From assembly GCA_964393875.1 (NCBI GenBank), contig CAYMUZ010000168.1, forward strand, positions 1 through 32,396: a stretch of 32,396 bases of DNA. Reading direction: 5' to 3'. The stretch comes from an uncultured bacterium. Lineage in GTDB: Bacteria > Omnitrophota > Omnitrophia > Omnitrophales > Aquincolibacteriaceae. This document shows positions 876 to 26,960 of this stretch, in pieces. Position 1 is the first letter of the stretch, and each line of letters opens with the position of its first letter. The notes beneath the pieces are model-generated. The model did not search any database. It was given only the letters and a program-made list of their open reading frames with translations, and had not been told where the DNA came from. The translations under genes were made by a program, and so were the position numbers.

Positions 876-1592
876 TTGAATAAGCAGGTTCAGGCCGATC
901 TTGAAGTCCTCAAACGAACACAATCCGTTGATGCGCAGCTTTATAAAATTTTAAGCGAGATTGAAGAAATTTCCCCGGAGCGTGAAAAAATTAAGCAGGA
1001 AGTCGAAAGTGAGCGGGCTCGTTTCAAGGAGCTTGAGGCGACGCTTAAGAAACGCCAGCTTGCACAGAAAGAAAAAGAAGGAGAGTTGGCGCAAAAGGAA
1101 GGCAATGTCAAAAAGATGGAAGGCCAGTTGTCGCAGGTGAAAACGAATAAGGAGTATGCGGCGCTTCAGCAGGAAATTGCGTCCTTGAAGGCGGATAACT
1201 CGCTGCTCGAAGAAGATGTTATCCGCATCATGGATGAGATTGAGGCCTGCCGTGATGAGGTGCTCAAAGAGCAGGCGCGTCTTAAGGACCGAGAGAAAGA
1301 TTTTACGGTTCGCGAGCAAGAGATCCAGAAGCGCGAGAAAGAGTGTTTGGATCAGAAACAAGAATTGTTACAGCAGAAAGAAGTAAGTATCAGCGCCCTA
1401 GCGCCGGATGTCAAAAGTCTTTATCTGCGTATCGTGGAAAAGAAAAATGGAATTGCTCTTGTGCCGGTTCGCGGCGGTATCTGCGCAGGCTGCCGGATGT
1501 TACTGAGAGCCCAAGTGATCAATGAAGTGATGCTGCAGGAAACGCTTGTGATTTGTGACAACTGCGCGCGTATTTTGTATATCGAAAATTGA
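876..1592 (+). CDS. coiled-coil / C4 zinc-ribbon protein (COG1579, DUF164, HP0958-like family)
   Basis: TTG start 6 nt after AAGGGGG (863-869). About 190 aa of charged heptad-like coiled coil (KEKEGELAQKEG, QEIQKREKE) is followed by a C-terminal CxxC...CxxC ribbon (ICAGCRM ... ICDNCARILY). Confidence 0.85.
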   Translation: MNKQVQADLEVLKRTQSVDAQLYKILSEIEEISPEREKIKQEVESERARFKELEATLKKRQLAQKEKEGELAQKEGNVKKMEGQLSQVKTNKEYAALQQEIASLKADNSLLEEDVIRIMDEIEACRDEVLKEQARLKDREKDFTVREQEIQKREKECLDQKQELLQQKEVSISALAPDVKSLYLRIVEKKNGIALVPVRGGICAGCRMLLRAQVINEVMLQETLVICDNCARILYIEN

Positions 1593-1793
1593 GCTTTTTC
1601 GCCGGCTTCATGCCGGTGCGGCGAATCTCGCCTCACCCCCCCCCTCGCTAGTTTCTTGATCGCGTCTTAGTTAGAGCCTTTTTCTCCCCCACTTTGCAGC
1701 CACTGGAAGAATAGCCCACATATTGTATTTTTAAATCGTCCAAGTACAACAGGATGTATCTTTTTGTCCATGAAGCACTTAAGTAAAAAATAA

Positions 1794-1822
1794 TTGACAG
1801 GCGTGTTAATAAAAAATAGACT
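1794..1822 (+). promoter_or_regulatory. candidate Pmra-like promoter of the dcw cluster
   Basis: Consensus -35 TTGACA (1794-1799), a 17-bp spacer, then -10 TAGACT (1817-1822). It lies 64 nt upstream of the mraZ ATG. Confidence 0.5.
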
Positions 1823-1835
1823 GCGCTCGATAATT

Positions 1836-1864
1836 AAGTGGTAGAAAGTGGTGTAAAGTGGTGG
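1836..1864 (+). promoter_or_regulatory. candidate MraZ operator (three phased direct repeats)
   Basis: AAGTGGT occurs three times at exact 10-bp spacing (1836-1842, 1846-1852, 1856-1862), just downstream of the -10 and upstream of mraZ. MraZ proteins are known to bind arrays of short G-rich direct repeats with about 10-bp periodicity in their own promoter. Confidence 0.6.
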
Positions 1865-1885
1865 ATAAGCCAATGCGAGGTAAGC

Positions 1886-2320
1886 ATGTTCTACGGTGAA
1901 TATGAGCACACACTTGATGCAAAAGATCGCGTGATCGTTCCCGCGAAGTTCCGGGAGATTTTTAAAGAAAGCTACACGGAGCGTTTCTTTATCACGCGGG
2001 GCCTCGATCAATGTCTTTTTGTGTTCACCGAAGAAGTTTGGCGCGCCCAAGAACGCAAGTTCCGCGAAATGCCGTTCACCCGGCAGGAAGCTCGAAAATT
2101 CAATCGTCTTTTTTTCTCAGGGGCGGCCGAAGTCGTTTGTGACAAACAGGGGCGTATTTTGATTCCAGGGTATCTCAAAGGGTTTGCCGACATTAAACAG
2201 GACGTCATGATTATCGGTGTTTCCGACAGGATTGAAATTTGGTCCAAGGAAAAGTGGCATGGTTTTATTGAAAATAACAAGGGTAGTTTTGAAGATCTCG
2301 CGGAGAAACTTTTGAGCTAG
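1886..2320 (+). CDS. mraZ: transcriptional regulator MraZ
   Basis: MFYGEYEHTLDAKDRVIVPAKFRE at the N-terminus, with a second half-domain DKQGRILIPGYLK. These are the two DxxxR-containing SpoVT/AbrB-like repeats typical of MraZ. ATG at 1886 follows GAGG (1877-1880). The 16 codons upstream in the ORF track overlap the operator and are unlikely to be coding. It is the first gene of a dcw-type cluster. Confidence 0.9.
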   Translation: MFYGEYEHTLDAKDRVIVPAKFREIFKESYTERFFITRGLDQCLFVFTEEVWRAQERKFREMPFTRQEARKFNRLFFSGAAEVVCDKQGRILIPGYLKGFADIKQDVMIIGVSDRIEIWSKEKWHGFIENNKGSFEDLAEKLLS

Positions 2321-2340
2321 GCTGAAAAAAGGAGGATCCT

Positions 2341-2679
2341 ATGGCTTATCGTTCCAGAACTAAAGTGGGGGTGGACGTTCTTCGGTTTGAGGGTGATTTA
2401 AGTGTTGGGGAGATGGTCAAGATGAAAAGCCGCCTCACGCGCCTTTTAAACAAAAACCACAAAAATATGCTCTTGGATCTCAAGCAGGCGCGAAATGTCG
2501 AGCTTGCAGGCCTTGGAATTCTTGTGGATCGCCTCCGCAGTGTTCGCGCCCTCAAAGGCGATATTAAACTTTTCAATCTTCGCCCGGAAGTCCGCAATGC
2601 GTTCAACATGGTCGGAGTGGGTTCTTTGATGGAGTCTTTTGCGTCTGAAGAGGAGGCTTTGAGGAGTTTTGCCGCATAA
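2341..2679 (+). CDS. STAS-domain protein (anti-sigma-factor-antagonist-like)
   Basis: ATG follows AGGAGG (2330-2335). The 112-aa size and pattern are SpoIIAA/STAS-like: LRFEGDLSVGE...LLDLKQARNVELAGLGILV...LRPEVRNAFNMVGV. The usual DSSGLG phospho-serine position reads ELAGLG. Confidence 0.8.
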   Translation: MAYRSRTKVGVDVLRFEGDLSVGEMVKMKSRLTRLLNKNHKNMLLDLKQARNVELAGLGILVDRLRSVRALKGDIKLFNLRPEVRNAFNMVGVGSLMESFASEEEALRSFAA

Positions 2680-3571
2680 GCCTGTTTTGGTTCAAGAAAC
2701 CCTTGAACTCCTTAAACTGCGACCCGCAATGACGGTGGTCGATGGAACCCTTGGCGGTGGAGGTCACTCTCTTGAAATCGTTCGACGAATTGCTCCCGGA
2801 GGCCACTTGATCGCCCTTGACAGAGACCCCGATGCATTAGAGCGGGCACAAAAAAAACTTCCAACGGACTGTCGCCTGAGCTTTGCGAATGAAAACTTCA
2901 AAGATCTACCCGGTGTTCTCCGGCAGCTTAATGTTTCATCGGTGGATGCCGTTCTCTTGGACGTAGGGTTCTCGTCCGATCAGGTTGAGGAGGCTTCGAG
3001 AGGGTTTAGTTTTGACAAGGAGGGGCCGCTGGACATGCGTTTGAATCAACAGGAAGGGATTTCAACAGCAGCGGATTTCTTGGCGGAACTTTCGGAGGGC
3101 GAGCTTGAAGCTGTTTTTCGTAACTATGGCGAAGAGAGATTTGCCCGGCGGATTGCTAGAGCCGTTTGCTGGCATCGGGATAAGAATCCGATTGAGACGA
3201 CTTTTCAGCTCGCGGAGGTGGTTGTTTCAGCCATTCCGGGAGCCCGATCGCGTGGTCCCCGTCCTTTTTTTAAAAGACATCCTGCCATGAGAGTTTTTCA
3301 AGCACTGCGGATAGCGGTGAATGATGAGTTGGGAAGTCTTCAGGAAGGCTTGGCGAATATTTGGCCGCATGTCCATTGCGGCGGGCGCCTGGGGGTGATT
3401 TCGTTTCACTCCCTCGAAGACCGTATCGTTAAGCGAAAGTTTCTCGCATGGAAAGCGGAGGGCTCTGCAGAGATCGTGACGCGTAAACCGGTTCAGCCTG
3501 CGGAAGCGGAGCTTCAGGAGAACTCCAGAGCGCGTAGTGCAAAATTCAGAGTGGCGGAAAAAAAATCATGA
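2669..3571 (+). CDS. rsmH: 16S rRNA (cytosine1402-N4)-methyltransferase RsmH
   Basis: HKPVLVQE N-terminus, VDGTLGGGGHS SAM-binding motif, LDVGFSSDQ, and FHSLEDRIVK. The TTG start overlaps the STAS stop by 11 nt. The exact start is uncertain. Confidence 0.92.
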   Translation: MPHKPVLVQETLELLKLRPAMTVVDGTLGGGGHSLEIVRRIAPGGHLIALDRDPDALERAQKKLPTDCRLSFANENFKDLPGVLRQLNVSSVDAVLLDVGFSSDQVEEASRGFSFDKEGPLDMRLNQQEGISTAADFLAELSEGELEAVFRNYGEERFARRIARAVCWHRDKNPIETTFQLAEVVVSAIPGARSRGPRPFFKRHPAMRVFQALRIAVNDELGSLQEGLANIWPHVHCGGRLGVISFHSLEDRIVKRKFLAWKAEGSAEIVTRKPVQPAEAELQENSRARSAKFRVAEKKS

Positions 3572-3997: not shown

Positions 3998-5755
3998 ATG
4001 GCGTCCCTTCTTTCACCCCGCCGCTTCTGGTTTTTGGGGCTTGTTGTTTGCGCATTGTTTATTCTTCTTACCTACCAATTGCTTCAGCTCTGTGTCGTGC
4101 GCCGGCCGACATTACTTCAGATCGCTGAGCGGCAGCAACAGCTTAAAATAGAAATTCCTCCCGTGCGCGGTCAGATTTTTGACCACGACGCTAAAGAGCT
4201 TGCCACCAGTCTCAAAGTTCCATCCGTCTACGCGATCCCGCGTCTTATCGGCAAAAATGAAGTAAAGGATCTCGCCGCCAGGCTCAGCAAAATTTTAAAT
4301 GTGGGCACGCCCTATCTTCTTAAACGCTTAAGCCGCGACAAAGCGTTTGTCTGGATTAAGCGGCGCGTGAGTTTTGAAGACGCTGAACACATTCGGAATA
4401 TGGAACATCCGGCGTTGGGTCTTGTGGAGGAATACAAACGTTTTTACCCTCAGGCGGATCTTGCGTCTCATGTGCTGGGCTATGTGAACGTCGATAGCCA
4501 CGGCCTCGAGGGAGTCGAAAGGGTTTTTGACCGTGAGCTGCGGGGAGAGGCGGGAAGGCGTTATACGAAGCGTGATGCTTTGGGGCGGGAAGTGCGTGCT
4601 TTTGAGATTAAGTCGGTGCCCGCCATCAACGGCAAGCGTATTTATTTGACACTGGATCAATACATGCAGTACGTGACGGAACGGGCTCTTGATCGCGCTT
4701 ATATCAAGTGGCATGCCAAGGGTGCCACGGCGGTCATGATGGAGGCATCGACAGGCCGCATTCTGGCGATTGCCAACCGGCCCACCTATGATCCCAACCG
4801 GCCGGGTGGAGCGGCGGCTGAAGCCCGCCGCAACCGCGCTGTCACGGATATGTATGAGCCGGGTTCCATCTTTAAAATCGTGGCTTTCAGCGGTGTTCTA
4901 GAAGAAAAAAAGGGGGGATTGGAAGACAAGTTTAATTGCGAAAATGGAAATTATCATTACGGCGGCGGGCGAGTGCTTCATGATGCCCATCCTTATGGAA
5001 TTCTCACCCTCCCTGAAATTTTAATCAAATCCAGCAACATTGGCACCGTGAAAGTGGCGGCGCTGCTCGAACACGAGAGTCTTTTTCACTACATTCAAGG
5101 GTTTGGGTTCACCCAACTGACAGGAATTGATCTGCCGGGCGAAGCCGCTGGTTTTATTCGCCCGCCCAGCTTATGGTCCAAAACATCCCCCTATAACATC
5201 CCGATTGGGCATGAGACGCTTGTGACCCTGCTTCAAATGACACGAGCCTTTGCTGTGATTGCCAATGGGGGCAATCTTGTCACTCCGTACGTGCTTTCCA
5301 GGATCGAAGATGAAGCGGGGGTGACCCTGCTTGAGAAAAAACCAGTGATTCGCAGCCGCGTGATCAGTGAAGAAACCGCAAAGACGATGCGCGAATTGAT
5401 GATCCGCGTGGTGACGGAAGGAACCGGAACTAACGCAAGAATCGAGGGAGTGCTTGTCGCCGGAAAAACGGGGACGGCTCAAAAAGTGCTGTCCCATGGG
5501 CGTGGGTATTCGCACGACAGCTTTATGTCTTCATTCATCGGGTTTGCGCCGGCAGATGCGCCGCGGATTGTGATGGCCGTGATGCTGGATGATCCAAAAC
5601 CGAGTTATTACGGCGGGACTGTGGCAGCGCCTGTTTTTAAGGAAGCCGTGGAAGCCGCTCTTTTTGCGCTTGGATACGTTCCACAGAACGCCAAAGTTTT
5701 TAACGGGATTTCAGCTTCGGCAGGCGCTCCAGAAAATCCAGCCACTGCGGAGTGA
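3998..5755 (+). CDS. ftsI: peptidoglycan D,D-transpeptidase FtsI (class B PBP)
   Basis: N-terminal TM helix and a PBP dimerisation region. The transpeptidase motifs are present: SxxK (GSIFK), SxN (KSSN) and KTG (GKTGTA). It sits after ftsL in the dcw cluster. Confidence 0.92.
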   Translation: MASLLSPRRFWFLGLVVCALFILLTYQLLQLCVVRRPTLLQIAERQQQLKIEIPPVRGQIFDHDAKELATSLKVPSVYAIPRLIGKNEVKDLAARLSKILNVGTPYLLKRLSRDKAFVWIKRRVSFEDAEHIRNMEHPALGLVEEYKRFYPQADLASHVLGYVNVDSHGLEGVERVFDRELRGEAGRRYTKRDALGREVRAFEIKSVPAINGKRIYLTLDQYMQYVTERALDRAYIKWHAKGATAVMMEASTGRILAIANRPTYDPNRPGGAAAEARRNRAVTDMYEPGSIFKIVAFSGVLEEKKGGLEDKFNCENGNYHYGGGRVLHDAHPYGILTLPEILIKSSNIGTVKVAALLEHESLFHYIQGFGFTQLTGIDLPGEAAGFIRPPSLWSKTSPYNIPIGHETLVTLLQMTRAFAVIANGGNLVTPYVLSRIEDEAGVTLLEKKPVIRSRVISEETAKTMRELMIRVVTEGTGTNARIEGVLVAGKTGTAQKVLSHGRGYSHDSFMSSFIGFAPADAPRIVMAVMLDDPKPSYYGGTVAAPVFKEAVEAALFALGYVPQNAKVFNGISASAGAPENPATAE

Positions 5756-6671
5756 ATCGCTCTTTCGGATAGACGGCCTCGAGGTCGGTGAATCCTGCGG
5801 GTGATGTGACGTTTACTTCCAATAATTTCCCCCCCATCACATCCAGCCCCGCAACCGACAGTCCGAGCTTTTTCAGCCAGGGGATGATTCGTTTTACGAG
5901 GCGTATTTCTTTTGAAGTTAATGTAGCGGGGTGAGCGGTGCCGCCCAAACTCAAATTGGAGCGGAACTCGCCGGGCGGTGGACGTTTTTCAAACACCCCT
6001 AGAATGCGCCCATTTAAAATCAATACGCGCTTATCGGCACCTCTCGGTGATTTTATGAACTTTTGGACAGCAACGGGAATGCGTCCGCCGCGAGTCAGGT
6101 GCCGGATCTGAGTTTGAGCCGCAGCGCCATGACGTGAGAGCAGAAGAATGCCGCGTCCACCGCGCTCATCCAGTCGTTTGATGACCAGCGTTACGCGTTT
6201 TCTTTTTTGAAACGCCAAGATGGTTTGAGCCGAAGCGCTGACCAGTGTTTGGGGGGTAGGGCTCTGTGTGAGAATCGGTGCCCACTTTTCACTGGCATTT
6301 CTAACACCGGCAGGACTGTTGACCACAGGGACAAAACGGCTCGCACATTCCAACAGATACGTCAGATGAAGGTAGGCTTCGTCAAAAGGGGGCTCCTTTC
6401 TCAGTAAAACTAGATTAAACCGTGGCATTTCCATCGGCACTGGCGCGAGACTGTTAAATCCCTTTTGGGGCCGTGGGGAAAATCGATGAGCCTCAGCGAT
6501 GATTCGGCCGGTGTCAAAAGAAAGTCCCCGCACGTCTGTCCACCAGGTGTGGATGCCACGATGCGCCATTTCGCGCGCCAGCGCAAGGGAGTTATCCCAC
6601 ACAGGATCCAGACGGTGAATCGGATCCATCACAAACAGCACACGCTCTAAGGGTCTAAATATTTTTTTCAC
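5700..6671 (-). CDS. gshB: glutathione synthetase (prokaryotic ATP-grasp type)
   Basis: Colinear with E. coli GshB as I remember it: VMDPI..., LLRKEPPFD, NSPAGVRNASEK, DKRVLILNG, EFRSNLSLGGTAHPATLT, GLDVMGGKLLEVNVTSP. GTG start at 6669-6671. Confidence 0.9.
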   Translation of the reverse strand: MKKIFRPLERVLFVMDPIHRLDPVWDNSLALAREMAHRGIHTWWTDVRGLSFDTGRIIAEAHRFSPRPQKGFNSLAPVPMEMPRFNLVLLRKEPPFDEAYLHLTYLLECASRFVPVVNSPAGVRNASEKWAPILTQSPTPQTLVSASAQTILAFQKRKRVTLVIKRLDERGGRGILLLSRHGAAAQTQIRHLTRGGRIPVAVQKFIKSPRGADKRVLILNGRILGVFEKRPPPGEFRSNLSLGGTAHPATLTSKEIRLVKRIIPWLKKLGLSVAGLDVMGGKLLEVNVTSPAGFTDLEAVYPKERFTPQWLDFLERLPKLKSR

Positions 6672-6698
6672 AGGAAAATAGATTTTGTTACTTCGAGT

Positions 6699-8165
6699 TT
6701 GGTTACTCTAGGTTTCTTTCCTTGTGGAATCTTGAAGCTAAGTTTATTCTACTGTAAAAGAACCATCCGGAGGCTATTTTTGAGCACTTTTATTGGGAGT
6801 ACCAGTCAGACTCTTCTAGAATCGGAGAAACCCCTGCACGATTATTTTCAGCGGCACGCCAAGCCCCGTTCCGGGCTGCTTGTGGGGTTGGAGTTGGAAA
6901 TTTTTGCAGTGAACCGTGAGAGCGGCCGCGCACTGCCTTATTCGGGGGCGGGAGGAATCGAAAAAATTTTGCAGAGGATGGTTTCGCGTTTTCACTATAC
7001 GCCTGTGGAAGAAAACGGCCACATCATCGCGCTTCGTCGTAAGGATGCAATGATCACACTCGAACCGGGTGGACAGGTTGAACTGAGCGCGCCGCCGGTG
7101 GTGACTCTCTTTGAGGTTGAATGGCAAATAGCCAGGTTTTTTTCTGAATTGCATCTTTTGAAAGATGATTTTCAAGAGTTGGAGTGGATCGCTTTTGGAA
7201 TTCAACCGTTTAGTACGAGTGAGGATATCGAGCGAGTTCCCAAAGTGCGCTACGGGATGATGGCCGAACATTTCAAGACGAGGGGAGCGCTTTCTCACGA
7301 CATGATGAAATGTACGGCGACCAATCAAGTGAATTTTGATTATCTGAATGAGGACGACGCCATGGACAGTTTGCGTACGGCACTCGGAATTACGTCGATC
7401 GTTTCAGCCTTGTTTGCAAACTCCTCTTTTTCTGGGGGAGCCCCCAATGGATTTTTGACGCGGCGTCTTGAGATTTGGAACCATACGGACCCTGACCGTA
7501 CCGGAATTGTGCCATTGTTTTTGGAGCCTGGCCGCACCTTTCAAGATTATCTCGAGTACCTGCTTCAGATGCCGATGCTTTTTATTGTTCGGGAGGGAAG
7601 GTGGCTGATGGTGCCAAACCGCTCTTTCCGGCAGTTTATCCGCCATGGTTTTGAACACTGGCGAGCGACGCTGGAAGATTTTGAATTGCATTTAAGTGCG
7701 GCTTTTCCGGAAGTGCGTTTGAAGCAGTATTTGGAAGTTCGCGGAGCGGATTGCCAGCCGCCTAAACTGATTCCGGCCGTGGCCGCATTCTGGAAAGGCA
7801 TTCTCTATCGGCAAGATGCCCGGCGCGAGGCGTGGAAGCTCGTGGCGGATGCTTCGATGGATGAGCGCCGGCGGTTGCATCAAGAAGTACCGCGGCTTGG
7901 GCTTTCAGCAAAACTGGGTGGCTGGTCCAGTTTCGACATCGCCCGGGAGCTGATAGAAGTTTCTTATGACAGTCTTGCGAAGCAGGGGACGGGTAGTGGA
8001 ACCCGCAGTGAATGTCAGTTTTTAACGCGGCTTCGCGAGCAAATCAGGAAGCCCCGGCAGTCGTCTGCGGAACAATTTCTTACGTGGTATCGGTCCGAGA
8101 CTTTTCGCAGCCCGTGCGAAATCGTGGATTACCTGCGCATTGGCGGGGTGCGCGACAGGGCCTGA
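6699..8165 (+). CDS. gshA: glutamate--cysteine ligase, plant/proteobacterial type (GCS2 family)
   Basis: ITLEPGGQVELSAPP, PKVRYGMM, TATNQVNFDY and ALFANSSF match the hallmark blocks of plant-type gamma-glutamylcysteine synthetase. There is no in-frame ATG near the 5' end. Candidate starts are TTG 6699 or TTG 6780. Confidence 0.88.
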   Translation: MVTLGFFPCGILKLSLFYCKRTIRRLFLSTFIGSTSQTLLESEKPLHDYFQRHAKPRSGLLVGLELEIFAVNRESGRALPYSGAGGIEKILQRMVSRFHYTPVEENGHIIALRRKDAMITLEPGGQVELSAPPVVTLFEVEWQIARFFSELHLLKDDFQELEWIAFGIQPFSTSEDIERVPKVRYGMMAEHFKTRGALSHDMMKCTATNQVNFDYLNEDDAMDSLRTALGITSIVSALFANSSFSGGAPNGFLTRRLEIWNHTDPDRTGIVPLFLEPGRTFQDYLEYLLQMPMLFIVREGRWLMVPNRSFRQFIRHGFEHWRATLEDFELHLSAAFPEVRLKQYLEVRGADCQPPKLIPAVAAFWKGILYRQDARREAWKLVADASMDERRRLHQEVPRLGLSAKLGGWSSFDIARELIEVSYDSLAKQGTGSGTRSECQFLTRLREQIRKPRQSSAEQFLTWYRSETFRSPCEIVDYLRIGGVRDRA

Positions 8166-10893: not shown

Positions 10894-11286
10894 ATGAAGA
10901 AATTATGGGCACTCCCCCTGCTTATTTTTTTTCTGGTGAGCTTTTCCTCACAGGCATCTGCAGACGATCTCAAATCTTTTTGCTCGCAAACTTGTGGCTT
11001 GTGGCCGAAAATGTGTGCCACGGGGACGTTGTGCCTGAAGCTGTGCAAAACGCCCCAGCGCATCATGAAAGGCTGCTACTCCAACAAAGTCCCCGTCGAT
11101 ACAAAACTGCCGGATATCGCGATGACGAAACAGCAATTCTGCCAGGCCCTGTGTGGTAAACCACCGCTTGTCTGCGCCGTCATGACTTACTGCACGCAGA
11201 GCTGCGGAACGAAGCCGGAAAGTATGAAAGCTTGCATTGAGCAGGGCATTTCCCTCGATACTTACCGGCCAAAGATTATTGGCTAA
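10894..11286 (+). CDS. secreted cysteine-rich tandem-repeat protein (function unknown)
   Basis: Signal peptide MKKLWALPLLIFFLVSFSSQASA. Two 53-residue repeats follow, each with the identical spacing CX3CX6CX5CX3CX9C (C30..C61 and C83..C114). It is the first gene of the sensor/efflux locus. Confidence 0.75.
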   Translation: MKKLWALPLLIFFLVSFSSQASADDLKSFCSQTCGLWPKMCATGTLCLKLCKTPQRIMKGCYSNKVPVDTKLPDIAMTKQQFCQALCGKPPLVCAVMTYCTQSCGTKPESMKACIEQGISLDTYRPKIIG

Positions 11287-11350: not shown

Positions 11351-12025
11351 ATGCGGATTTTGATTATTGAGGATGACCCCAAGACCGCAGGCTATTTAAA
11401 ACAGGGCCTTTCTGAAAATGGCTATGCTGTGGACGCAGCCTTGACGGGCAGTGACGGACTGGCGTTGGCGCATTCCAAAGAGTATGTGCTGATGATCCTG
11501 GATGTCATGATCCCGAAAATGGATGGCTGGAGCATTCTGGCAGAATTGCGTCGCGAAGGGAACAAAACGCCGGTGCTTTTTCTCACGGCCCGTGATTCTG
11601 TCGAAGACCGGGTGCGCGGTCTCAAGCTGGGTGCGGATGATTACCTTGTGAAGCCCTTTTCTTTTTCAGAACTACTTGCTCGCATGGAATCTATTTTGCG
11701 CCGAGGAAACTTCTCGCAGCCGCTGCAGAAAATTCAAGTGGGCGATTTGGAAATTGATTTCACGAATCATCGTGTGACGCGGGCGGCGAAGCGGATCGAA
11801 CTGACCCAAAAGGAATTTCTACTCCTCTATCTTTTGGCCCGCCATCCGGGCAGGGCTCTCTCACGGACGCTGATCGCCGAACAGGTGTGGGATATGAATT
11901 TTGACAGTGATACCAATGTGGTGGATGTTGCGATTCGACGGCTGCGCGCCAAAGTGGATGAACCTTTCCAGCGCACATTGATTCATACCGTCCGTGGCAT
12001 GGGGTATGCGCTTGAAGCACGTTAG
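11351..12025 (+). CDS. OmpR-family response regulator, heavy-metal (CusR/CopR/CzcR) type
   Basis: MRILIIEDD...LDVMIPKMDGW...LTARDSVEDRVRGLKLGADDYLVKPFSFSELLARMESILRRG closely follows CusR. The C-terminal winged helix contains VRGMGY. Confidence 0.93.
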   Translation: MRILIIEDDPKTAGYLKQGLSENGYAVDAALTGSDGLALAHSKEYVLMILDVMIPKMDGWSILAELRREGNKTPVLFLTARDSVEDRVRGLKLGADDYLVKPFSFSELLARMESILRRGNFSQPLQKIQVGDLEIDFTNHRVTRAAKRIELTQKEFLLLYLLARHPGRALSRTLIAEQVWDMNFDSDTNVVDVAIRRLRAKVDEPFQRTLIHTVRGMGYALEAR

Positions 12026-13442
12026 AAATCTGTTGTCGTCCTCCATGGTGTTGCGTCTCGCACTGCTTTATGCCGTCTCTTCCTTTGTGATTCTATCCCT
12101 CTCCTTTGGCTATCTCTACGGAGCGCTCGGCCGCAATCTTAAAGCGGATGAAACCACGTTTTTCAAGGAACAAATGCATTTCTTGAAGGAGATTATTCAC
12201 GATAGACCCGCAGAGTTTGAAGAGGTGAAGGAGAAAATTAACCTGGAAAATTCTGTGACGGGTGTCCCGCGGTATTTTATGCGGGTCCTGGATGATGCCC
12301 GGCAGACTTTGACGGAAACCCGGGGAATGCCGGTATCCGCAAATCGATTTCCGGAATTTTTGTTTTCACACGATGAAAATGAATCTCTGACGGAAGTGAC
12401 GCAAGCAGGGAAAACTTATTTGCTTTTTGGGTCCGGATGCCGCTTTGGGAATACGGGCCCCTGGGCATCCATTCAACTGGCTGCTGATATTTCAACCGAT
12501 AACCGGATTCTTTTGGATTATGGCAGGAAACTTGCGGGAGTCCTGGTGCTGGGGGTGTTTGCTGCGGGTTTTGCAGGGGCGCTGATCAGCCGCCGTGGAC
12601 TTTTGCCATTGAAAAAAATGGCCGAGGCCGCACAAAAAATCCATGCCGAAAATCTTCAGCAGAGTATTTGCGAGAAAGATTGGCCTGAAGAATTACAACA
12701 GTTGGCAGTGGCCTTCGAAGACATGCTCCGCCGGCTCGAAAAATCTTTTACGCAGATTTCACGATTTTCTGCAGACCTGGCGCATGAACTCCGGACGCCC
12801 GTGAATAATCTCATCGGAGAGACCGAAGTCATTTTATCGAAACCTCGCGATGCGGAGGACTATCAAAAGCTTTTGGGCTCGAATCTTGAGGAGTATGAGA
12901 AACTTTCAAAAATCATTGAGAGCATGCTTTTTCTTGCCCGCGCGGAAAACACCGAAATTCCGGTGAAGCGCGAGCCGCTTGATCTCGCGGGGGAAGTCGA
13001 CCGCGTGAAGGACTATTACGGCGCTTTGGCGGAAGAAAAAGGGCTCACGATGAGCCGCAATGGCGAGGGGGTCTTGTTCGCCGATCCCACCCTTTTTCGC
13101 AGGGTTTTGACGAATCTGATTTCAAATGCGATCAAGCACGCAGATCGTGGACAAGTCACTGTTGAAATCATGGAACACCCGGATCACTCCGTGGAGCTTT
13201 CCGTTTCAGACATGGGGCCTGGGATTTCTCCCGCGGATCTTCCGCATATTTTCGACCCATTTTACAGGGTTGATCCCGCAAGATCGTCTGTCGTAGAAGG
13301 GACCGGGCTTGGATTGGCCATTGTTAAATCGATTATGAATCTGCACCGTGGTTCTGTCACTGCCGAGAGCGTGCCAGGACAGGGCACACGCATTCTGCTT
13401 TTTTTCCCACCGCACCTCAAAGATGACAACATTGTAATCTGA
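12006..13442 (+). CDS. heavy-metal sensor histidine kinase (CusS/CzcS type)
   Basis: Two TM helices flank a periplasmic domain of about 130 aa, followed by HAMP. The H-box FSADLAHELRTPVNNL is typical of the heavy-metal sensor kinase family. N, G1 and G2 boxes are present (NAIKH, DMGPGI, GTGLGLAI). The start is ATG 12006 or GTG 11994; both overlap the regulator gene. Confidence 0.9.
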   Translation: MRLKHVRNLLSSSMVLRLALLYAVSSFVILSLSFGYLYGALGRNLKADETTFFKEQMHFLKEIIHDRPAEFEEVKEKINLENSVTGVPRYFMRVLDDARQTLTETRGMPVSANRFPEFLFSHDENESLTEVTQAGKTYLLFGSGCRFGNTGPWASIQLAADISTDNRILLDYGRKLAGVLVLGVFAAGFAGALISRRGLLPLKKMAEAAQKIHAENLQQSICEKDWPEELQQLAVAFEDMLRRLEKSFTQISRFSADLAHELRTPVNNLIGETEVILSKPRDAEDYQKLLGSNLEEYEKLSKIIESMLFLARAENTEIPVKREPLDLAGEVDRVKDYYGALAEEKGLTMSRNGEGVLFADPTLFRRVLTNLISNAIKHADRGQVTVEIMEHPDHSVELSVSDMGPGISPADLPHIFDPFYRVDPARSSVVEGTGLGLAIVKSIMNLHRGSVTAESVPGQGTRILLFFPPHLKDDNIVI

Positions 13443-13493
13443 CCGTCATCTTCCTGCCTTCTGCGGATGTTATGCTACAGACCAGGAGGATCT

Positions 13494-14927
13494 ATGGTTG
13501 GACTGTGCATTCCCACTCGAAAGATTCTGCCGCGTGACTCCGTGCTTGCAGGTGTCTTGCTCGGTGTCTTCTTACTCGGCGGATGCGCCCGGTTTCACGC
13601 AGAAACATTACGCCCCTCACAAACATTGGCTGATTTTGAGGCCCGTACCCTCGAAAGCCCTGACCTCAAACAATTCATCGAGTTTTGTACCCAACGCCCA
13701 ATGACTGCATGGCCGGTCAAAAAGTGGGACCTCGATTCTCTAACTCTGGCGGCCCTTTTTTATCATTCTGATCTCGAGGTAGCGCGAGCGCAATGGCAGG
13801 TTGCCAGGGGTGCGATTGTAACCGCGGGAGAGCGGCCCAACCCCACCGTGGGATTCAACCCCGAATACAAGGCCGGTGGAACGAGCGGGATTTCGCCGTG
13901 GCTTTACGGCCTGACTTTTGACCTGCCCGTGGAAACCATGGGTAAGCGAGGCCGGCGTATCGATCAGGCGCGGCATCATGCCCGAAGCGCAGCCCTTAAC
14001 ATTGCGTCTGCAGCCTGGCAGGTGCGCAGCCGGCTTCACACTGCATGGATTCAACTTAAAACAGCGCGAGCAAATACGGCTTTGTGGAAAGAACAGCTAG
14101 AGCTGCAAGAGGGCTGTCTTCAATCGCTCAACGGTGCTGAAAATGGAGACAGCCTTGCACCGCCAGATCGACTTCAGCTCGAAATCACATGGCGTCAAAC
14201 ACAAATAAGTTTTTTAGAAGCCCGCCGGCAGTCGGAGGATGCGGAAGTTCAGCTGGCGGAATCTCTGGGAATTCCTGTGCATGCCGTACCGCGGGTTGCG
14301 CTAGAACCAAACTCGGGTCGGGCGCAGAAGTTTTCAAAAAAAGAAATACGTCAGCGTGCCCTGACCCAACGTCCCGATTTATTGGGACTGCTCGCCGACT
14401 ACGAGGCCAGTCAGTCTGCGTTGCAGCTTGAGATTGCTCGGCAGTACCCGGACGTTCATCTTGGGCCGGGATATACCTGGGATCAGGGACAGAATAAGTG
14501 GTCTGCGGGTGTGAGCATTACTCTGCCCGTTTTCAATCACAATCAGGGACCCGTGGCAGAAGCTAAAGCCCGGCGGGAAGAGGCACGGTTGCGTTTCACC
14601 GCATTGCAGGAAAAGATTATTTTTGAGGTGGAGCGGGTTTTCAGCGCCTACGAATTTTGCGAGCAAAAGTGGGAGATGGCGCAAAGCCTTTTGGAGGTGC
14701 AGAGGCAGCAGGAGGAGATCCATAAACAATTTTTAATGGAAGGGGAGGCGTCGCGTTTGGCCGCGTTGAATTTTAAACTGGCGCTTAAGACGGCTGAGTT
14801 TGCTGCTGCGGATGCCGGAAGTAAACGGGATCTAGCGTTGGCCGCGCTTGAAGATGCCATGATGGCGCCGCTTGACTCTCAATTATTTCCGCTCTCCGGA
14901 GAAAAACGGGCGAAGGTCTTAAAATGA
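13494..14927 (+). CDS. TolC/CzcC-family outer membrane efflux lipoprotein
   Basis: ATG 13494 is 4 nt after AGGAGG (13484-13489). Lipobox LLGGC. The OEP-type repeats are visible (LAALFYHSDLEVARAQWQVARG ... ERPNPTVGFNPEY; second half LPVFNHNQGPVAEAKARREEA). Confidence 0.88.
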   Translation: MVGLCIPTRKILPRDSVLAGVLLGVFLLGGCARFHAETLRPSQTLADFEARTLESPDLKQFIEFCTQRPMTAWPVKKWDLDSLTLAALFYHSDLEVARAQWQVARGAIVTAGERPNPTVGFNPEYKAGGTSGISPWLYGLTFDLPVETMGKRGRRIDQARHHARSAALNIASAAWQVRSRLHTAWIQLKTARANTALWKEQLELQEGCLQSLNGAENGDSLAPPDRLQLEITWRQTQISFLEARRQSEDAEVQLAESLGIPVHAVPRVALEPNSGRAQKFSKKEIRQRALTQRPDLLGLLADYEASQSALQLEIARQYPDVHLGPGYTWDQGQNKWSAGVSITLPVFNHNQGPVAEAKARREEARLRFTALQEKIIFEVERVFSAYEFCEQKWEMAQSLLEVQRQQEEIHKQFLMEGEASRLAALNFKLALKTAEFAAADAGSKRDLALAALEDAMMAPLDSQLFPLSGEKRAKVLK

Positions 14928-15406
14928 GGCAACGTGGATATGACACTTTGGCGAGGGAGCCAGTTTTAAAAATAGTTGCGGCGTCCTTCCTTTTTTTGAT
15001 TTGTATTTCCGGCAGTGTCTTTGCGGAGCCGGAAGAGGGACGCAAAACCCATTGGGTGACTCAGGAGGGGGAAACTCTTTTATGCTTCTCTCAAGCCGAG
15101 ATCGTTGACAATGCAATCAAGACGGAGATCGCCCCGGCCTCGACGGTTGGGTTGCTCGCACCTTCAACGGCGATTGTTTGGCGGAAAGGCCACCCGTGGG
15201 TGTATGTCCAAAAAAAGGAGAATTGTTTTCTTCGCACAGAAATATCTCTCGTTTCTGACGGACCTTCCACAAAACCCATTTGTCCCCAGCGCGATTGTCA
15301 GCGGGTGCTCGCGAACCCCGTCTTAAAAAATAAAATGGTAGTGCAGGGCGCCGCACAGCTTTTATCGGAGGAGTTCATCAATGAAATCGGGGAGGATGCG
15401 GAATGA
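14924..15406 (+). CDS. short periplasmic protein in the membrane-fusion (adaptor) position; only MFP N- and C-terminal segments recognisable
   Basis: ATGA overlaps at both ends (14924-14927 and 15403-15406). Signal peptide IVAASFLFLICISGSVFA. FSQAEIVDNAIKTEIAP resembles the MFP N-terminal strand. APSTAIVWRKGHPWVYVQKKENCFLRTEISL...MVVQGAAQLLSEE resembles the MFP C-terminal domain. At 160 aa there is no room for lipoyl or alpha-hairpin domains. Confidence 0.65.
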   Translation: MRQRGYDTLAREPVLKIVAASFLFLICISGSVFAEPEEGRKTHWVTQEGETLLCFSQAEIVDNAIKTEIAPASTVGLLAPSTAIVWRKGHPWVYVQKKENCFLRTEISLVSDGPSTKPICPQRDCQRVLANPVLKNKMVVQGAAQLLSEEFINEIGEDAE

Positions 15407-18400
15407 AGTCTGAAGCCGGCGGTTTCTTGAATGGACTGGTTGAGCTCTCACTTCGTTTTCGAGTGATTGTGCTGGTTTTGGCCTTGGGTCTGATGGGTTA
15501 CGGATTTTACAGTTTATTGAATGCCAAGTACGATGTTTTTCCTGAGTTTGCAGATCCGCAGATCACGATTCAAACTCAAGCGGTTGGGCTGTCGCCCGAA
15601 CAGGTTGAGACGCTGGTCACACTGCCCATTGAAAGCTCGATGAATGGAGCGGCGGGCCTAGAGACCCTGCGATCCAACTCGATTCAGGGCCTTTCAGTCA
15701 TCACCGCGATATTTCACTCCGACACCGATATTTACCGGGCGCGGCAGATCATTACCGAAAGGCTTGCCTCGATTGCTTCAAAGCTTCCGCAGGGAGTGCA
15801 GGCTCCGGTGATGGTGCCTCTGACCTCCGCGACGGGCGATCTTGTGAAAATAGGGCTGATATCCCATAAACATTCGCTGATGGAGCTTCGGACTCTGGCC
15901 GATTGGACGCTCAAGCCGCGCTTCTTAGCGGTACCAGGGGTGGCGAAGGTCTCGATTTTTGGGGGAGAGGTGAAACAACTCCAGATTCAGATCGATCCCG
16001 ACCGTTTGCGGCAGTACCAGCTGTCGGTTGACGATGTTTTTGCAGCGGCGAGGCGGGCAACGGGGGTACGAGGTGCCGGTTTTGTGGATACCGGAAACCA
16101 GCGTATTGTACTGCAGGCAGACGGACAGACACTGACGCCTGAAGCTTTGGGCGAGAGCATTCTTGTGGTGGGTGCCAACTCCGGAGTGACGTTCGTCGCA
16201 ACGCTGGCCGATGTGGCAAAAATCGTTGCGGCTCCCGATCTGCCCATCAGCGCGGCCACGGTCATGGGAGAGCCGGGTGTGACCTTGAATATCTGGGGGC
16301 AGTATGGCGCTAATACGTTGGAAGTGACGCGGTTGATCGAGCAGGCCGTGGTCGAATTAAAACCCATGCTTGATCAGGAAGGCGTCGAACTTTACCCTGT
16401 TCTTTTTCGCGCTGCTAGTTTTATTGAGATTGCCACAAGCAATCTTAAAACATCCTTGTGGATGGGCGGTTTGCTTGTGGGGGTGATTTTATTCTTGTTT
16501 TTGTGGGATGTTCGAACCGCGTCGATTTCTGTAACGGCGATTCCCTTGTCGTTGGTTGCCGCGGTGATCGTGATGCAGAAATTGGGTTTTAGTCTCAATA
16601 CGATGACTCTCGGAGGTTTGGCGATTGCCATTGGGGAAGTGGTGGATGATGCCGTGATCGACGTGGAAAATATTTTGCGCCGCATTCGCGAGAATGCCCA
16701 TGCGGCACGGCCCAAACCCGCGTTTCAGGTGGTGCTTGAAGCCTCTCTGGAAGTTCGCAGTGCCGTGGTTTATGCCACCTTTGCGGTGATTCTAGTGTTT
16801 ATTCCGGTGTTGACGATGTCCGGATTAGCCGGAAAATTTTTTGCGCCTCTCGGCATCGCTTACATTCTTGCCATTCTTTCCTCCCTGGGGGTGGCCGTGA
16901 CCTTGACGCCGGCGCTCTGTCTTATTTTTTTCAAAAAAGCGGATCTGGAAAATGAAGAGCCTCGTTTTTTACAAGGATTGAAAAGGCAGTACCGGCAATG
17001 GCTTCAGCAGGTAGAAAAATATCCACGAATAGTCATGATGGCACTTTTTCTCGTCAGTTTTGCCGGTCTTGCGGCGGGGCCTTTTTTGAAAACGGAGTTT
17101 TTGCCTGAACTTCAGGAAGAGCATTTTTTAATTCATATGGCGGCGGTGCCCGGCACTTCGATTGAAGAATCACTGCGCATCGGTAACCGGGTCACGCAAG
17201 AGTTGCTCAAACTGCCGTGGATGCGCTTTGTGGCACAGCAGGTGGGCAGGGCGGAGGCCGACGATACATTTGGTCCGCATGCGAGTGAGTTTCAAGTGGA
17301 TCTCCGGCCCCTGAGTAAAAAAGAAGCAGAGAGGGCTTTGCCCGCGATTCGCCAGGTGCTTTCAAAGTTTGTGGGGGTGCGCTTTGCGGTTAATACCTTT
17401 TTGGCGGAACGCATTGAAGAAACGCTTTCTGGATACACGGCCCCGGTGGCAATTCATCTCTACGGAGACTCGCTGGATCTTTTGGATCAAAAAATTACAG
17501 AGGTCGCGCGGGTGCTCGAAAAAGTGTCTGGGGTGACCGATCTTCAGGCGCAGTCTCCGCCGGGAGCGCCTGAACTTTCCGTCCGCTTGCGGCCACTGGA
17601 TTTACAGAAGTGGGGTTTTGCGGCGGTGGATGTGCTCGACTCGATAAAAACAGCCTACCAGGGCAATGTGGTTGGGCAAATTTACGAGGGGAGCCGAGTG
17701 TTTGATGTTTCGGTTATTCTAGAGCCGCAATTGCGGAAATCGATTCCCGATGTGGGTGGTTTACTGCTGAAAAGTCCGGCAGGGTTGTATGTGCGCTTGA
17801 ATCAGCTTGCGGATATTCAGGAAACCGCCGGTCGTTACGGCATTCTTCATGAGCATGCACGGCGTGTTCAGACGCTGACCTGCAATGTTCATGGGCGTGA
17901 TGTCGATTCTTTTGTGCGTGAAGCCAGGCGGAGTTTGGAGAAGGGGGTGACATTGCCGGCGGGCATGTACCTTGAATTTGCGGGAACGGCCGAGGCGCAG
18001 GATCGTTCACGCCACGATTTGATGGTGCACTCGCTCGCGGCCGGGATGGGCATTCTTTTGCTTCTCGGGATTGTCCTGAATCATCCGCGCAACGTGATGC
18101 TCGTTTTACTTAATTTGCCATTTGCGCTCACAGGCGGCGTGTGGGCGTTGTTGGCGACGAGAACGGCTTTGTCGCTTGGCGCGCTCGTTGGATTTGTTAC
18201 CCTTTTTGGAATTACGCTGCGCAATTCCATTATGATGATTTCGCACTACACCCACTTGATTCAGGAAGAACAGAAGCTTTGGAATGTGGAGACAGCCATT
18301 CAAGGTGCGTGCGAACGGCTGGGGCCGATTTTGATGACGGCGCTTGTGGCAGGGATCGGACTTTTACCTTTGGCGCTTGGGAGTGGCACGGCCGGGCGTG

Positions 18401-18525
18401 AGATCGAAGGGCCTATGGCCATTGTCATTCTCGGCGGACTTGTCACATCCACCCTGCTCAATCTTCTTGCGCTTCCCGCGCTTGCCCTGCGCTACGGCTC
18501 CTTCCAGCGAGAGGAGTCTGTCTAA
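15403..18525 (+). CDS. CzcA/CusA-family RND efflux permease
   Basis: 1040 aa with a 12-TM RND layout. The N-terminal block FPEFADPQITIQTQAVGLSPEQVETLVTLPIE...LRSNSIQGLSVITAIFHSDTDIYRARQIITERL follows the CzcA-family pattern. The TM4 motif is AIGEVVDDAVIDVEN. Confidence 0.95.
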   Translation: MKSEAGGFLNGLVELSLRFRVIVLVLALGLMGYGFYSLLNAKYDVFPEFADPQITIQTQAVGLSPEQVETLVTLPIESSMNGAAGLETLRSNSIQGLSVITAIFHSDTDIYRARQIITERLASIASKLPQGVQAPVMVPLTSATGDLVKIGLISHKHSLMELRTLADWTLKPRFLAVPGVAKVSIFGGEVKQLQIQIDPDRLRQYQLSVDDVFAAARRATGVRGAGFVDTGNQRIVLQADGQTLTPEALGESILVVGANSGVTFVATLADVAKIVAAPDLPISAATVMGEPGVTLNIWGQYGANTLEVTRLIEQAVVELKPMLDQEGVELYPVLFRAASFIEIATSNLKTSLWMGGLLVGVILFLFLWDVRTASISVTAIPLSLVAAVIVMQKLGFSLNTMTLGGLAIAIGEVVDDAVIDVENILRRIRENAHAARPKPAFQVVLEASLEVRSAVVYATFAVILVFIPVLTMSGLAGKFFAPLGIAYILAILSSLGVAVTLTPALCLIFFKKADLENEEPRFLQGLKRQYRQWLQQVEKYPRIVMMALFLVSFAGLAAGPFLKTEFLPELQEEHFLIHMAAVPGTSIEESLRIGNRVTQELLKLPWMRFVAQQVGRAEADDTFGPHASEFQVDLRPLSKKEAERALPAIRQVLSKFVGVRFAVNTFLAERIEETLSGYTAPVAIHLYGDSLDLLDQKITEVARVLEKVSGVTDLQAQSPPGAPELSVRLRPLDLQKWGFAAVDVLDSIKTAYQGNVVGQIYEGSRVFDVSVILEPQLRKSIPDVGGLLLKSPAGLYVRLNQLADIQETAGRYGILHEHARRVQTLTCNVHGRDVDSFVREARRSLEKGVTLPAGMYLEFAGTAEAQDRSRHDLMVHSLAAGMGILLLLGIVLNHPRNVMLVLLNLPFALTGGVWALLATRTALSLGALVGFVTLFGITLRNSIMMISHYTHLIQEEQKLWNVETAIQGACERLGPILMTALVAGIGLLPLALGSGTAGREIEGPMAIVILGGLVTSTLLNLLALPALALRYGSFQREESV

Positions 18526-26399: not shown

Positions 26400-26960
26400 A
26401 TGAAAATAAAACGTATTTTTGTTTTAGGGTTGGCACTACTGGGGATTGGGACAAAGTCCCTCATGGCCGGTGATGCGCAGGGGCTTTACGACTTTACCGT
26501 CAAGACGATTGATGGAAAAGAAAAGTCGCTTTCTGATTTTAAAGGCAAGACCCTTTTGATCGTCAATACAGCCTCGAAGTGTGGATTTACCCCGCAGTAT
26601 CAGGACCTCGAGGCCCTTTATGAAAAGTATCGGGGCCGTGGATTGGAGATTCTGGCTTTTCCAGCCAATAATTTTATGCATCAGGAACCGGGGTCCGACA
26701 GTGAAATTGAAAAATTCTGCACGCTGCGCTTTCATATCAAATTCCTCTTGTTTTCAAAAATCAGTGTTCGCGGCAAAGATATTCACCCTCTATTTTCCTA
26801 TCTCACGTCACAGCCTGGGGTTAAGGGGGGTATTAAGTGGAATTTTACGAAGTTCCTCGTGGCTCCGGACGGGAAGATCACGGCACGTTTCGGTTCGCGG
26901 GTCAAACCGACAGCTCCGGAGGTGGTGATGGCATTGGAAAAAGCGCTGCCACTCGTGTAG
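26400..26960 (+). CDS. glutathione peroxidase (Cys-type, secreted/periplasmic)
   Basis: Signal peptide, then LLIVNTASKCGFTPQY (active-site Cys), LEILAFPANNF, and IKWNFTKFLV (the WNF motif). Confidence 0.92.
   Translation: MKIKRIFVLGLALLGIGTKSLMAGDAQGLYDFTVKTIDGKEKSLSDFKGKTLLIVNTASKCGFTPQYQDLEALYEKYRGRGLEILAFPANNFMHQEPGSDSEIEKFCTLRFHIKFLLFSKISVRGKDIHPLFSYLTSQPGVKGGIKWNFTKFLVAPDGKITARFGSRVKPTAPEVVMALEKALPLV

Follow-up and report, generated by a model that had tools for sequence, protein, structure and literature searches.

In textbook efflux pumps of the resistance-nodulation-division (RND) type, a four-domain periplasmic adaptor is needed: its α-hairpin recruits and opens the outer membrane channel, and its β-barrel clamps the crown of the pump. 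The membrane-proximal (MP) domains of adaptors also stimulate the transporter. MP domains contact the porter subdomains of the pump, are essential for assembly and function of AcrAB-TolC, and help to vet substrate access (PMC6975555, PMC8934357). The subject here is a metal efflux cluster in a 32,396-nucleotide stretch of DNA, hereafter the window, from an uncultured bacterium of the Omnitrophota (family Aquincolibacteriaceae; GenBank assembly GCA_964393875.1, contig CAYMUZ010000168.1). In this cluster, the gene between an outer membrane factor (OMF) and an RND pump encodes a protein of 160 amino acids (aa), which sequence, profile, and fold comparisons identify as an MP-only derivative of an RND periplasmic adaptor. 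The MP-only adaptor class is recurrent and under purifying selection. Reduction of the adaptor goes together with an insertion in a crown hairpin of the pump and with loss of an Asp near the tip of the OMF.

Among described systems, the adaptors CusB, ZneB/CzcB, and SilB come first for comparison. As in these proteins, the MP domain of the window protein is assembled from an N-terminal strand and a C-terminal β module, and the gene lies between or next to the genes of an OMF and an RND pump of the heavy-metal efflux type. A CusRS-type two-component system adjoins the window cluster, as in CusB-type metal systems. The differences lie in size, 160 versus 350–450 aa, and in domain content, as the α-hairpin, lipoyl, and β-barrel domains are all missing. 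The parent family of the window protein also differs from CusB, ZneB, and SilB in being anchored by a transmembrane (TM) helix, in lying beyond the Pfam models, and in having a C-terminal helix of its own, with the motif GAQLLLSEEF.

Three further proteins bear on the comparison. BesA, the adaptor of Borrelia burgdorferi BesABC (PDB 4kkt), is, like the window protein, a natural adaptor unable to make hairpin–OMF contacts. It is hairpin-less, and in its partner OMF, BesC, the primary gates are weak or missing. BesA, with its lipoyl and β-barrel domains in place, continues to wrap around the crown of the pump, whereas the window protein retains the MP domain only. PDB entry 5a4g, an engineered SilB N-terminus plus MP domain, has the topology of the window protein, with the nested domains removed, and matches its fold over 82 columns. 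This construct demonstrates that a polypeptide of this kind is able to fold independently. 5a4g is, however, a laboratory construct, whereas the window protein and about 33 related clusters are natural genes under selection. EmrA of Aquifex aeolicus is the opposite case, in which hairpin, lipoyl domain, and barrel are kept and the MP domain is absent. Like the window protein, EmrA illustrates that modular adaptors lose whole domains to match transporter architecture. Adaptors consisting of the MP domain alone go unmentioned in reviews from 2015, 2021, and June 2026, and targeted literature searches were also negative. The window protein is homologous to adaptors yet lacks three of the four domains by which the family is defined.

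The three cluster genes and the parts of the 160-aa protein are as follows, in window coordinates.

13467..14927, + strand: OMF, TolC/NodT family (Pfam OEP, 1.2e-37)

14924..15406, + strand: short adaptor, 160 aa, identified as a stand-alone MP domain of a divergent periplasmic adaptor protein/membrane fusion protein (PAP/MFP) family

15403..18525, + strand: RND pump, 1040 aa, CusA/CzcA-like (Pfam ACR_tran, 767 bits)

14963..15007, + strand: N-terminal hydrophobic helix of the short adaptor, residues 14–28; helix H14–28 in the AlphaFold model, aligned with the TM anchor of relatives

15050..15139, + strand: MP-domain N-terminal β-strands, residues 43–72, HWVTQEGETLLCFSQAEIVDNAIKTEIAPA; family consensus RVS..dGe.vvtLd...q..sGI

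15149..15346, + strand: MP-domain C-terminal β module, residues 76–141; matched by BLASTP and phmmer to the C-terminal ~80 residues of ~350-aa adaptors

15254..15298, + strand: loop insertion specific to this protein, residues 111–125, SDGPSTKPICPQRDC, which holds CPQRDC; a gap in all relatives

15347..15403, + strand: C-terminal helix and acidic tail, GAAQLLSEEFINEIGEDAE; the best-conserved motif of the family, GAQLLLSEEF; helix H143–154 in the model

An earlier note on this DNA had described the open reading frame (ORF) of the short protein as joined to both neighbors by ATGA overlaps, and the coordinates bear this out: its start codon shares an ATGA with the stop codon of the OMF gene, and its own stop codon shares one with the start of the pump gene. 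The pump and OMF ORFs are unbroken over 3.1 and 1.5 kb. Among the hallmarks of an adaptor found in the 160-aa gene are its position, adjacent to and co-oriented with the pump and OMF genes, and an N-terminal export or anchor helix.

The protein consists of this signal or anchor helix, the N-terminal strands, the C-terminal β module, and the C-terminal helix. Residues 14–28 are a signal peptide or a membrane anchor, with VFA-EPE as a possible cleavage site. In the AlphaFold model (pLDDT 77, pTM 0.65), strands E42–47 and E50–55 are predicted in the N-terminal part, and residues ~43–72 can be aligned with the N-terminal strands in ~350-aa adaptors whose genes immediately precede those of related pumps. 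Residues 76–160 match the last ~80 residues of these adaptors (BLASTP, best 1e-12). The near-invariant residues of the family are retained, namely P80, V85, G89, W92, Y94, F102, R104, V139, G142–Q144, L146–S148, and E150. L147, S148, E149, and E150 are invariant across the family, in long and short members alike. The C-terminal helix, GAQLLLSEEF(R)SQI across the whole family, is placed beyond the MP β module, and no equivalent of it is known to us from AcrA, MexA, or CusB.

Alignment with full-length family members reveals no counterpart of the α-hairpin, lipoyl, or β-barrel domain in the 160-aa protein. The columns of the canonical hairpin-tip motif, Y.R...L..D..NVS....QAAEA, in which R, L, and S are 80–90% conserved, are all gaps. 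No residues align with the barrel that would grasp the DN and DC hairpins of the pump, and the AlphaFold model displays no extra domain. The lipoyl domain is absent from the alignment, and no Biotin_lipoyl-type Pfam match was obtained. Thus, the two ends of an adaptor are present and the middle is absent, as the earlier note had judged by eye.

Its further claim, that the protein is a stand-alone MP domain, agrees with profile and fold comparisons. The MP-only profile (A1) finds 5a4g as its best match in the PDB, with both segments aligned (E 1.6e-5), and also matches the MP parts of ZneB (283–343), AcrA (306–365), MexJ, and MexA (268–328). When the short forms are compared with the full family by hhalign, the probability is 100%. 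The best PDB fold matches of the AlphaFold model, over 65–82 columns, are CusB, ZneB, BesA, 5a4g, and a TriABC adaptor chain, the matched parts being adaptor MP domains.

CPQRDC (residues 120–125, nt 15281..15298) had been put forward as a pair that could bind metal. The motif is present, but it is confined to the loop insertion of the 160-aa protein, which is modelled with lower confidence, and it is absent from all relatives, including the 253-aa relative described below and all other short forms. Not being conserved, CPQRDC is not part of a general mechanism. A broader proposal would make the short protein a metal chaperone or sensor, a CusF-like accessory and not a structural subunit, mainly binding metal through CPQRDC or through the acidic SEE tail and passing it to the pump or reporting it. 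The N-terminus and MP region of CusB take part in metal hand-over, 5a4g was, by its entry title, built to include the N-terminal metal-binding site, the operon adjoins a heavy-metal two-component system, and S148-E149-E150 is invariant. However, full-length adaptors conserve SEE just as strongly, so it is no peculiarity of the short forms. In Pfam and NCBIfam scans, the 160-aa protein matches neither the CusF/OB-fold domain of CusF-type metallochaperones, with its Met/His/Trp metal site, nor any other metal-binding domain, and the fold matches are to adaptors. We consider a chaperone or sensor role very unlikely.

The parent family was defined from 80 genome loci, fetched because their pumps are 54–61% identical to the window pump. 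Nearly all of them have a gene of ~340–370 aa ending at the pump start. These ~350-aa adaptors match NCBIfam TIGR01730 (RND_mfp) at 1e-13 to 1e-21, and they are too divergent for Pfam models, a scan against which gave no match. The model of one full-length member (P0003, pLDDT 87.5) has a TM helix, N-terminal strands, an α-hairpin (H98–151/H157–206), a β region, and a C-terminal module, and it matches TMexC, AcrA, MacA, MexA, ZneB, and CusB over its full length (E~1e-10). The best explanation of the 160-aa protein is that it arose from this TM-anchored family when the nested α-hairpin, lipoyl, and β-barrel domains were excised.

Two of the loci in the survey have features of their own. At L018, a 257-aa multi-TM protein with a C-terminal CSKC (5234..6007), by eye cation-diffusion-facilitator-like, is encoded between a full-length adaptor and the pump. 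At the canonical locus L015, the pump gene is broken near its 5′ end by ~500–700 nt (~6000..6720); the interruption bears an opposite-strand 173-aa ORF (6113..6634) and may be an inserted element.

The short architecture is shared by two others of the 80 loci. In L013, from a metagenome-assembled genome (MAG) of a betaproteobacterium, the OMF gene is followed by a gene for a 165-aa protein and then by the pump gene; in L005, a 152-aa protein precedes the pump. The L013 protein matches TIGR01730 positions 249–313 (3.3e-7, below the cutoff). The only close relative of the 160-aa protein is P0002 (253 aa), the aligned C-terminal region of which is 46% identical and the last 13 residues of which are identical. 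The P0002 gene has the same OMF/pump context, and its product lacks the hairpin and keeps a barrel-like middle. Over the N-terminal 201 residues, its pump, at locus L001, shares 76% identity with the window pump. The 279-aa adaptor of L088, a close relative of the window, likewise has no α-hairpin region. P0002 and the L088 adaptor fit the BesA-like hairpin-less class better than the window protein does. As the window and L001 adaptors are both hairpin-less, the hairpin-less state is old.

Single-sequence homolog searches gave only 2–5 relatives, so that an alignment-based search was needed. It found further complete short forms (P0006, P0007, P0008, P0010, P0018, and P0022), with the order OMF–short adaptor–pump at all six loci. 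The survey of orthologous loci that the earlier note had proposed therefore finds the short form recurring, with this order at nine short-form loci (143–165 aa, plus the 253-aa P0002). The OMF gene is kept and translationally coupled at every short-form locus examined with upstream DNA. At L082, a complete 1033-aa pump stands beside a short adaptor, and no other MFP gene was found on the 9.8-kb contig.

An exhaustive hidden Markov model search with a short-form profile against 1.84 billion representatives gave 3,574 matches. About 33 of the best 150 clusters are single-stretch, full-profile matches in proteins of 133–215 aa. Of the 32 sequences retrieved, P0180 is a 115-aa partial and P0179 matches in two stretches; each of the others has anchor, N-terminal strands, and C-terminal module, joined at differing junctions. 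One junction, LVPGF..KHTPGVVVP, is common to L013, P0006, and P0007, for which dN/dS is 0.17–0.30, with dS up to 1.07. Such ratios at dS ~1 indicate purifying selection since the shared deletion.

Some other short ORFs were tried as MP-only proteins and rejected. Those of L135, L139, L146, and L165 start inside the barrel region and have neither anchor nor N-terminal strand; they are fragments of full-length genes broken by frameshift or assembly error, and the pumps of these loci have a normal hairpin. At L083, the pump 3′ of the 155-aa P0018 (~1217..2990) aligns in two frames, with a switch near nt 1720, and starts about 600 nt after the adaptor gene, so it is possibly a pseudogene or a sequencing error.

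The recurrence and the purifying selection refute the suggestion in the earlier note of a deletion remnant unique to one genome. A wider version would hold that an in-frame deletion crippled the adaptor and that the operon is decaying, the ORF persisting because the event is recent or for the sake of translational coupling. Damage does occur in this family, as the frameshifted adaptors just described attest. The frame change in the L083 pump and the long terminal branches of short-adaptor pumps point the same way, as do slightly more mismatches at conserved pump positions (8 in the window pump and 15 in that of L082, against a family median of 5). Degeneration of the short-adaptor pumps was nevertheless rejected, as the mismatches are only mildly raised and stay inside the family range. 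The decay proposal also fits poorly with the dN/dS values after a shared deletion, with the number of distinct clusters of complete MP-only proteins, with retention of the near-invariant residues and the C-terminal motif, with the intact pump and OMF ORFs, and with the age of the hairpin-less state. We regard a non-functional remnant as quite unlikely.

The pump carries the second of the linked changes. The closest solved structures to the window pump are CusA (391 bits) and ZneA (383 bits), and its score of 677.4 bits on TIGR00914 (CusA/CzcA) is a near miss against the cutoff of 701.45. The TM4 motif, AIGEVVDDAVIDVEN, is intact, with the DD pair of AcrB-type pumps, and 244 of the 252 family columns that are ≥95% conserved are kept. 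The segment of interest is the following.

16159..16221, + strand: DN-subdomain β-hairpin 1 of the pump, pump residues 253–273, ILVVGANSGVTFVATLADVAK

Relative to pumps with canonical adaptors, hairpin 1 of the window pump has a 4-residue insertion at about residues 259–262 (nt 16177..16188). All four complete pumps beside MP-only adaptors have it, and most other pumps do not. When 80 further loci from metagenomes and four loci for intermediate adaptors were added, 154 loci were evaluable. The span between the GQ...DVA anchors is 29 aa in 139 of these and 33 aa (+4) in 15. A reduced or absent adaptor is accompanied by the +4 hairpin in 12/12 loci. The +4 loci are listed by adaptor type.

The window, L013, L005, L082, L083, L100: MP-only adaptor (6/6 evaluable)

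L088, L168, L169, L170: hairpin-less or short adaptor of 279–289 aa (4/4 evaluable)

L028, L042 (Elusimicrobiota): no adaptor gene, the OMF gene abutting the pump gene

L004, L008, L009: ~350-aa adaptor with a degenerate hairpin tip

All other loci, about 125 of them with a full-length canonical adaptor plus a few fragmentary ones, are without the insertion. In L004, L008, and L009, the R-L-S-type positions of the hairpin tip are mostly replaced. These loci, from MAGs of Auribacterota and relatives, also have a differing adaptor tail, ..SQYEIIEIAE, and OMFs without the tip Asp discussed below; they may represent an intermediate stage before adaptor reduction. In the Elusimicrobiota MAG loci (L028, 2826..7371; L042, 52..4075), the OMF gene abuts or overlaps the pump gene and the OMFs again have no tip Asp. 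No adaptor gene was found in the fetched DNA of either, where all ORFs of ≥60 aa were compared with the A1 profile without a match. Matches of the full-adaptor profile at L028 and L042 are an artefact, as the OMFs of these loci were part of its training alignment.

The insertion maps to CusA ~255–262 and the hairpin to CusA ~253–270. The matching AcrB segment, I249–K267 with the tip N254-Q255-D256-G257, is β-hairpin 1 of the DN (funnel/docking) subdomain; its residue numbers were checked against PDB chains. In RND pumps, the DN and DC hairpins are grasped by the adaptor β-barrel, and in AcrAB-TolC this applies to hairpin 1 (McNeil et al. 2019, PMC6975555). The two crown hairpins of AcrB can also be cross-linked to TolC, and hairpin deletion loses TolC (PMC4446572). 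Neither the second crown hairpin (DC) nor overall pump length has a compensating change. The recurrence of one specific insertion is unlike random damage, and in this respect too the locus does not look like a decaying remnant. Short-adaptor pumps are scattered among full-adaptor pumps, each being nearest in sequence to a normal pump, and the +4 pumps are each nearest to normal pumps and not to one another. Independent origins number at least three, the count being otherwise uncertain.

The third change is in the OMF.

14742..14759, + strand: second-repeat tip motif of the OMF, GEASRL, OMF residues 426–431; family consensus G-E-x-D-R-L, with Asp replaced by Ser

Of the OMFs of normal loci, 52/61 have an Asp three residues past the second-repeat tip Gly; among those of +4 loci, 0/9 do. 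Seven further OMF fragments from reduced-adaptor loci also have no tip Asp, for a total of 0/16. OMF length does not differ between adaptor classes. The gate weakness of BesC is a parallel to the lost tip Asp of window-type OMFs.

These OMF data bear on the idea that a full-length adaptor encoded elsewhere in the genome bridges pump and OMF, with the MP-only protein as a second, non-equivalent protomer or a modulator, comparable to TriABC. RND pumps with two adaptors do exist (TriABC; PMC4446572), and a TriABC adaptor chain is among the fold matches. On the other hand, no other MFP gene is found in the window or on the L082 contig, and the barrel-binding hairpin of the pump is altered at all such loci. 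The partner OMFs have also lost the tip Asp, which continued docking of a canonical hairpin at this site would not lead one to expect. A position conserved in OMFs that work with canonical hairpins is no longer conserved, which speaks against supply of a canonical adaptor in trans. Such trans-complementation seems improbable to us.

A second idea to be weighed here is that pump and OMF are uncoupled: the pump and its MP-only subunit would carry substrate only from the cytoplasm or inner membrane into the periplasm, and the OMF would be an outer-membrane exit in its own right or work with other systems. The MP-only protein cannot reach across the periplasm, an adaptor gene is missing altogether from two loci, and the degenerate tip motif of the OMF fits loss of any specific partner. 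Yet the OMF gene is retained, and in translational coupling, wherever upstream DNA of a short-form locus could be read, and the DN crown hairpin gains a specific insertion instead of decaying. This specific gain suggests that selection favored a new contact on top of the pump. Uncoupled operation is, in our judgment, doubtful.

Of the explanations offered in the earlier note, it is the one of a different coupling to the OMF that gains support from the correlated changes in pump and OMF. The reading we prefer, with a probability of roughly 0.6, is that the short protein is a functional subunit that binds and activates the pump through its MP domain, in a system that has abandoned adaptor-mediated engagement of the OMF. 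The proposed mechanism is as follows. The short protein, membrane-anchored or secreted and co-translated with the OMF and the CusA/CzcA-like pump, would bind the porter domain of its cognate pump, as the MP domains of complete adaptors do. By analogy, it would support or activate transport or substrate entry. It would no longer be able to reach, recruit, or open the OMF, and coupling of an adaptor hairpin to the OMF would have been given up, judging from the covariation. The OMF would then be engaged directly by the docking domain of the pump, or only loosely, which is the least certain step. Direct docking of pump and OMF is plausible, and it parallels what has been discussed for hairpin-less BesA with its gate-poor OMF BesC.

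A more specific proposal is that these are tripartite pumps with a minimal adaptor, in which the trimer docks the OMF via the lengthened DN hairpin 1, the gate is loosened, and the adaptor has become an MP activator or has been lost. The loosening would follow from loss of the tip-proximal Asp, and often of the Arg as well, and complete loss of the adaptor would be seen in the Elusimicrobiota loci L028 and L042. We hold this proposal only tentatively.

Several points weigh against the preferred reading of a pump-activating MP-only subunit. What the protein does we infer throughout. The association between adaptor class and the +4 hairpin (Fisher p ~2e-15) and that of the OMF Asp (p = 7e-7) are both uncorrected for phylogeny. 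Most +4 loci stand together in neighbor-joining order and are possibly one old clade, although this grouping is possibly long-branch attraction. Pumps with short or reduced adaptors lie on long branches, and with the frame change of the L083 pump this makes some decay possible. The +4 hairpin exceeds that of AcrB or CusA by just 2 residues, so the insertion alone cannot bridge a gap and proves nothing. The view takes in 32 kb of the genome, a point in favor of an adaptor in trans. At the level of the protein itself, the scan against Pfam that the earlier note had proposed gave no family at E ≤ 1, and the sole NCBIfam match, TIGR02828 (E 0.079), is not significant. The link to MFPs is therefore built through profiles and relatives, by way of which the relation does emerge. 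The proposed AlphaFold comparison led to the MP domains of adaptors with weak fold-search E-values, 0.03–0.9, as expected because the domain is small.

MP-only adaptors, a widespread and selected class that recurs in many bacteria, separate in nature two jobs of an adaptor, activation of the transporter and bridging to the channel. In MP-only systems, bridging must happen differently or not at all. The three linked changes, in adaptor, pump hairpin, and channel tip, point to specific residues, and they turn the old question of direct docking versus adaptor bridging into a testable comparison among close relatives in one pump family. If the minimal-adaptor proposal is true, bridged and directly docked architectures exist side by side in that family, and natural evidence would be at hand for the long-debated direct docking of RND pump and OMF. 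In annotation, MP-only proteins of 133–215 aa, which have no Pfam model, are now unnamed or called "hypothetical".

The remainder of the cluster is formed by two regulatory genes.

11351..12025, + strand: OmpR-type heavy-metal response regulator, first gene of the cluster (NCBIfam TIGR01387, 325 bits, cutoff 279; Pfam Response_reg and Trans_reg_C)

11994..13442, + strand: heavy-metal sensor histidine kinase of CusS/CopS/CzcS type (NCBIfam TIGR01386, 411.6 bits, cutoff 292.6), with HAMP, HisKA, and HATPase_c domains in the Pfam scan

This two-component system most likely controls the cluster of OMF, short adaptor, and pump. The OMF itself is probably a lipoprotein, to judge from the motif ..LLGGC... 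A scan of the window genes found no second adaptor or MFP gene elsewhere in the 32 kb. The surroundings are those of an ordinary chromosome, with mraZ, rsmH, ftsI, gshB, ligA, and an xerC-like gene among the genes of the window, and G+C is flat at about 0.52.

Immediately 5′ of the two-component system, 10894..11286 (+ strand) encodes a 130-aa secreted protein with two Cys-rich repeats, FCSQTCGLWPKMCATGTLCLKLCKTPQRIMKGC and FCQALCGKPPLVCAVMTYCTQSCGTKPESMKAC. It matches nothing in Pfam or NCBIfam and may be a periplasmic metal-binding protein of the same regulon as the efflux cluster. Within 10–15 kb of the cluster, at 5700..8165 and 26400..26960, are genes for a glutathione synthetase (− strand), a glutathione peroxidase, and a glutamate-cysteine ligase of GCS2 type; this thiol/redox context may be relevant to metal stress. 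Farther off, and hinting at a PVC-group origin of the window, 876..1592 (+ strand) encodes a coiled-coil and zinc-ribbon protein that matches the CT398-like domain of Pfam and, weakly, the model of chlamydial CdsZ (76 bits in NCBIfam, where the cutoff is 275).

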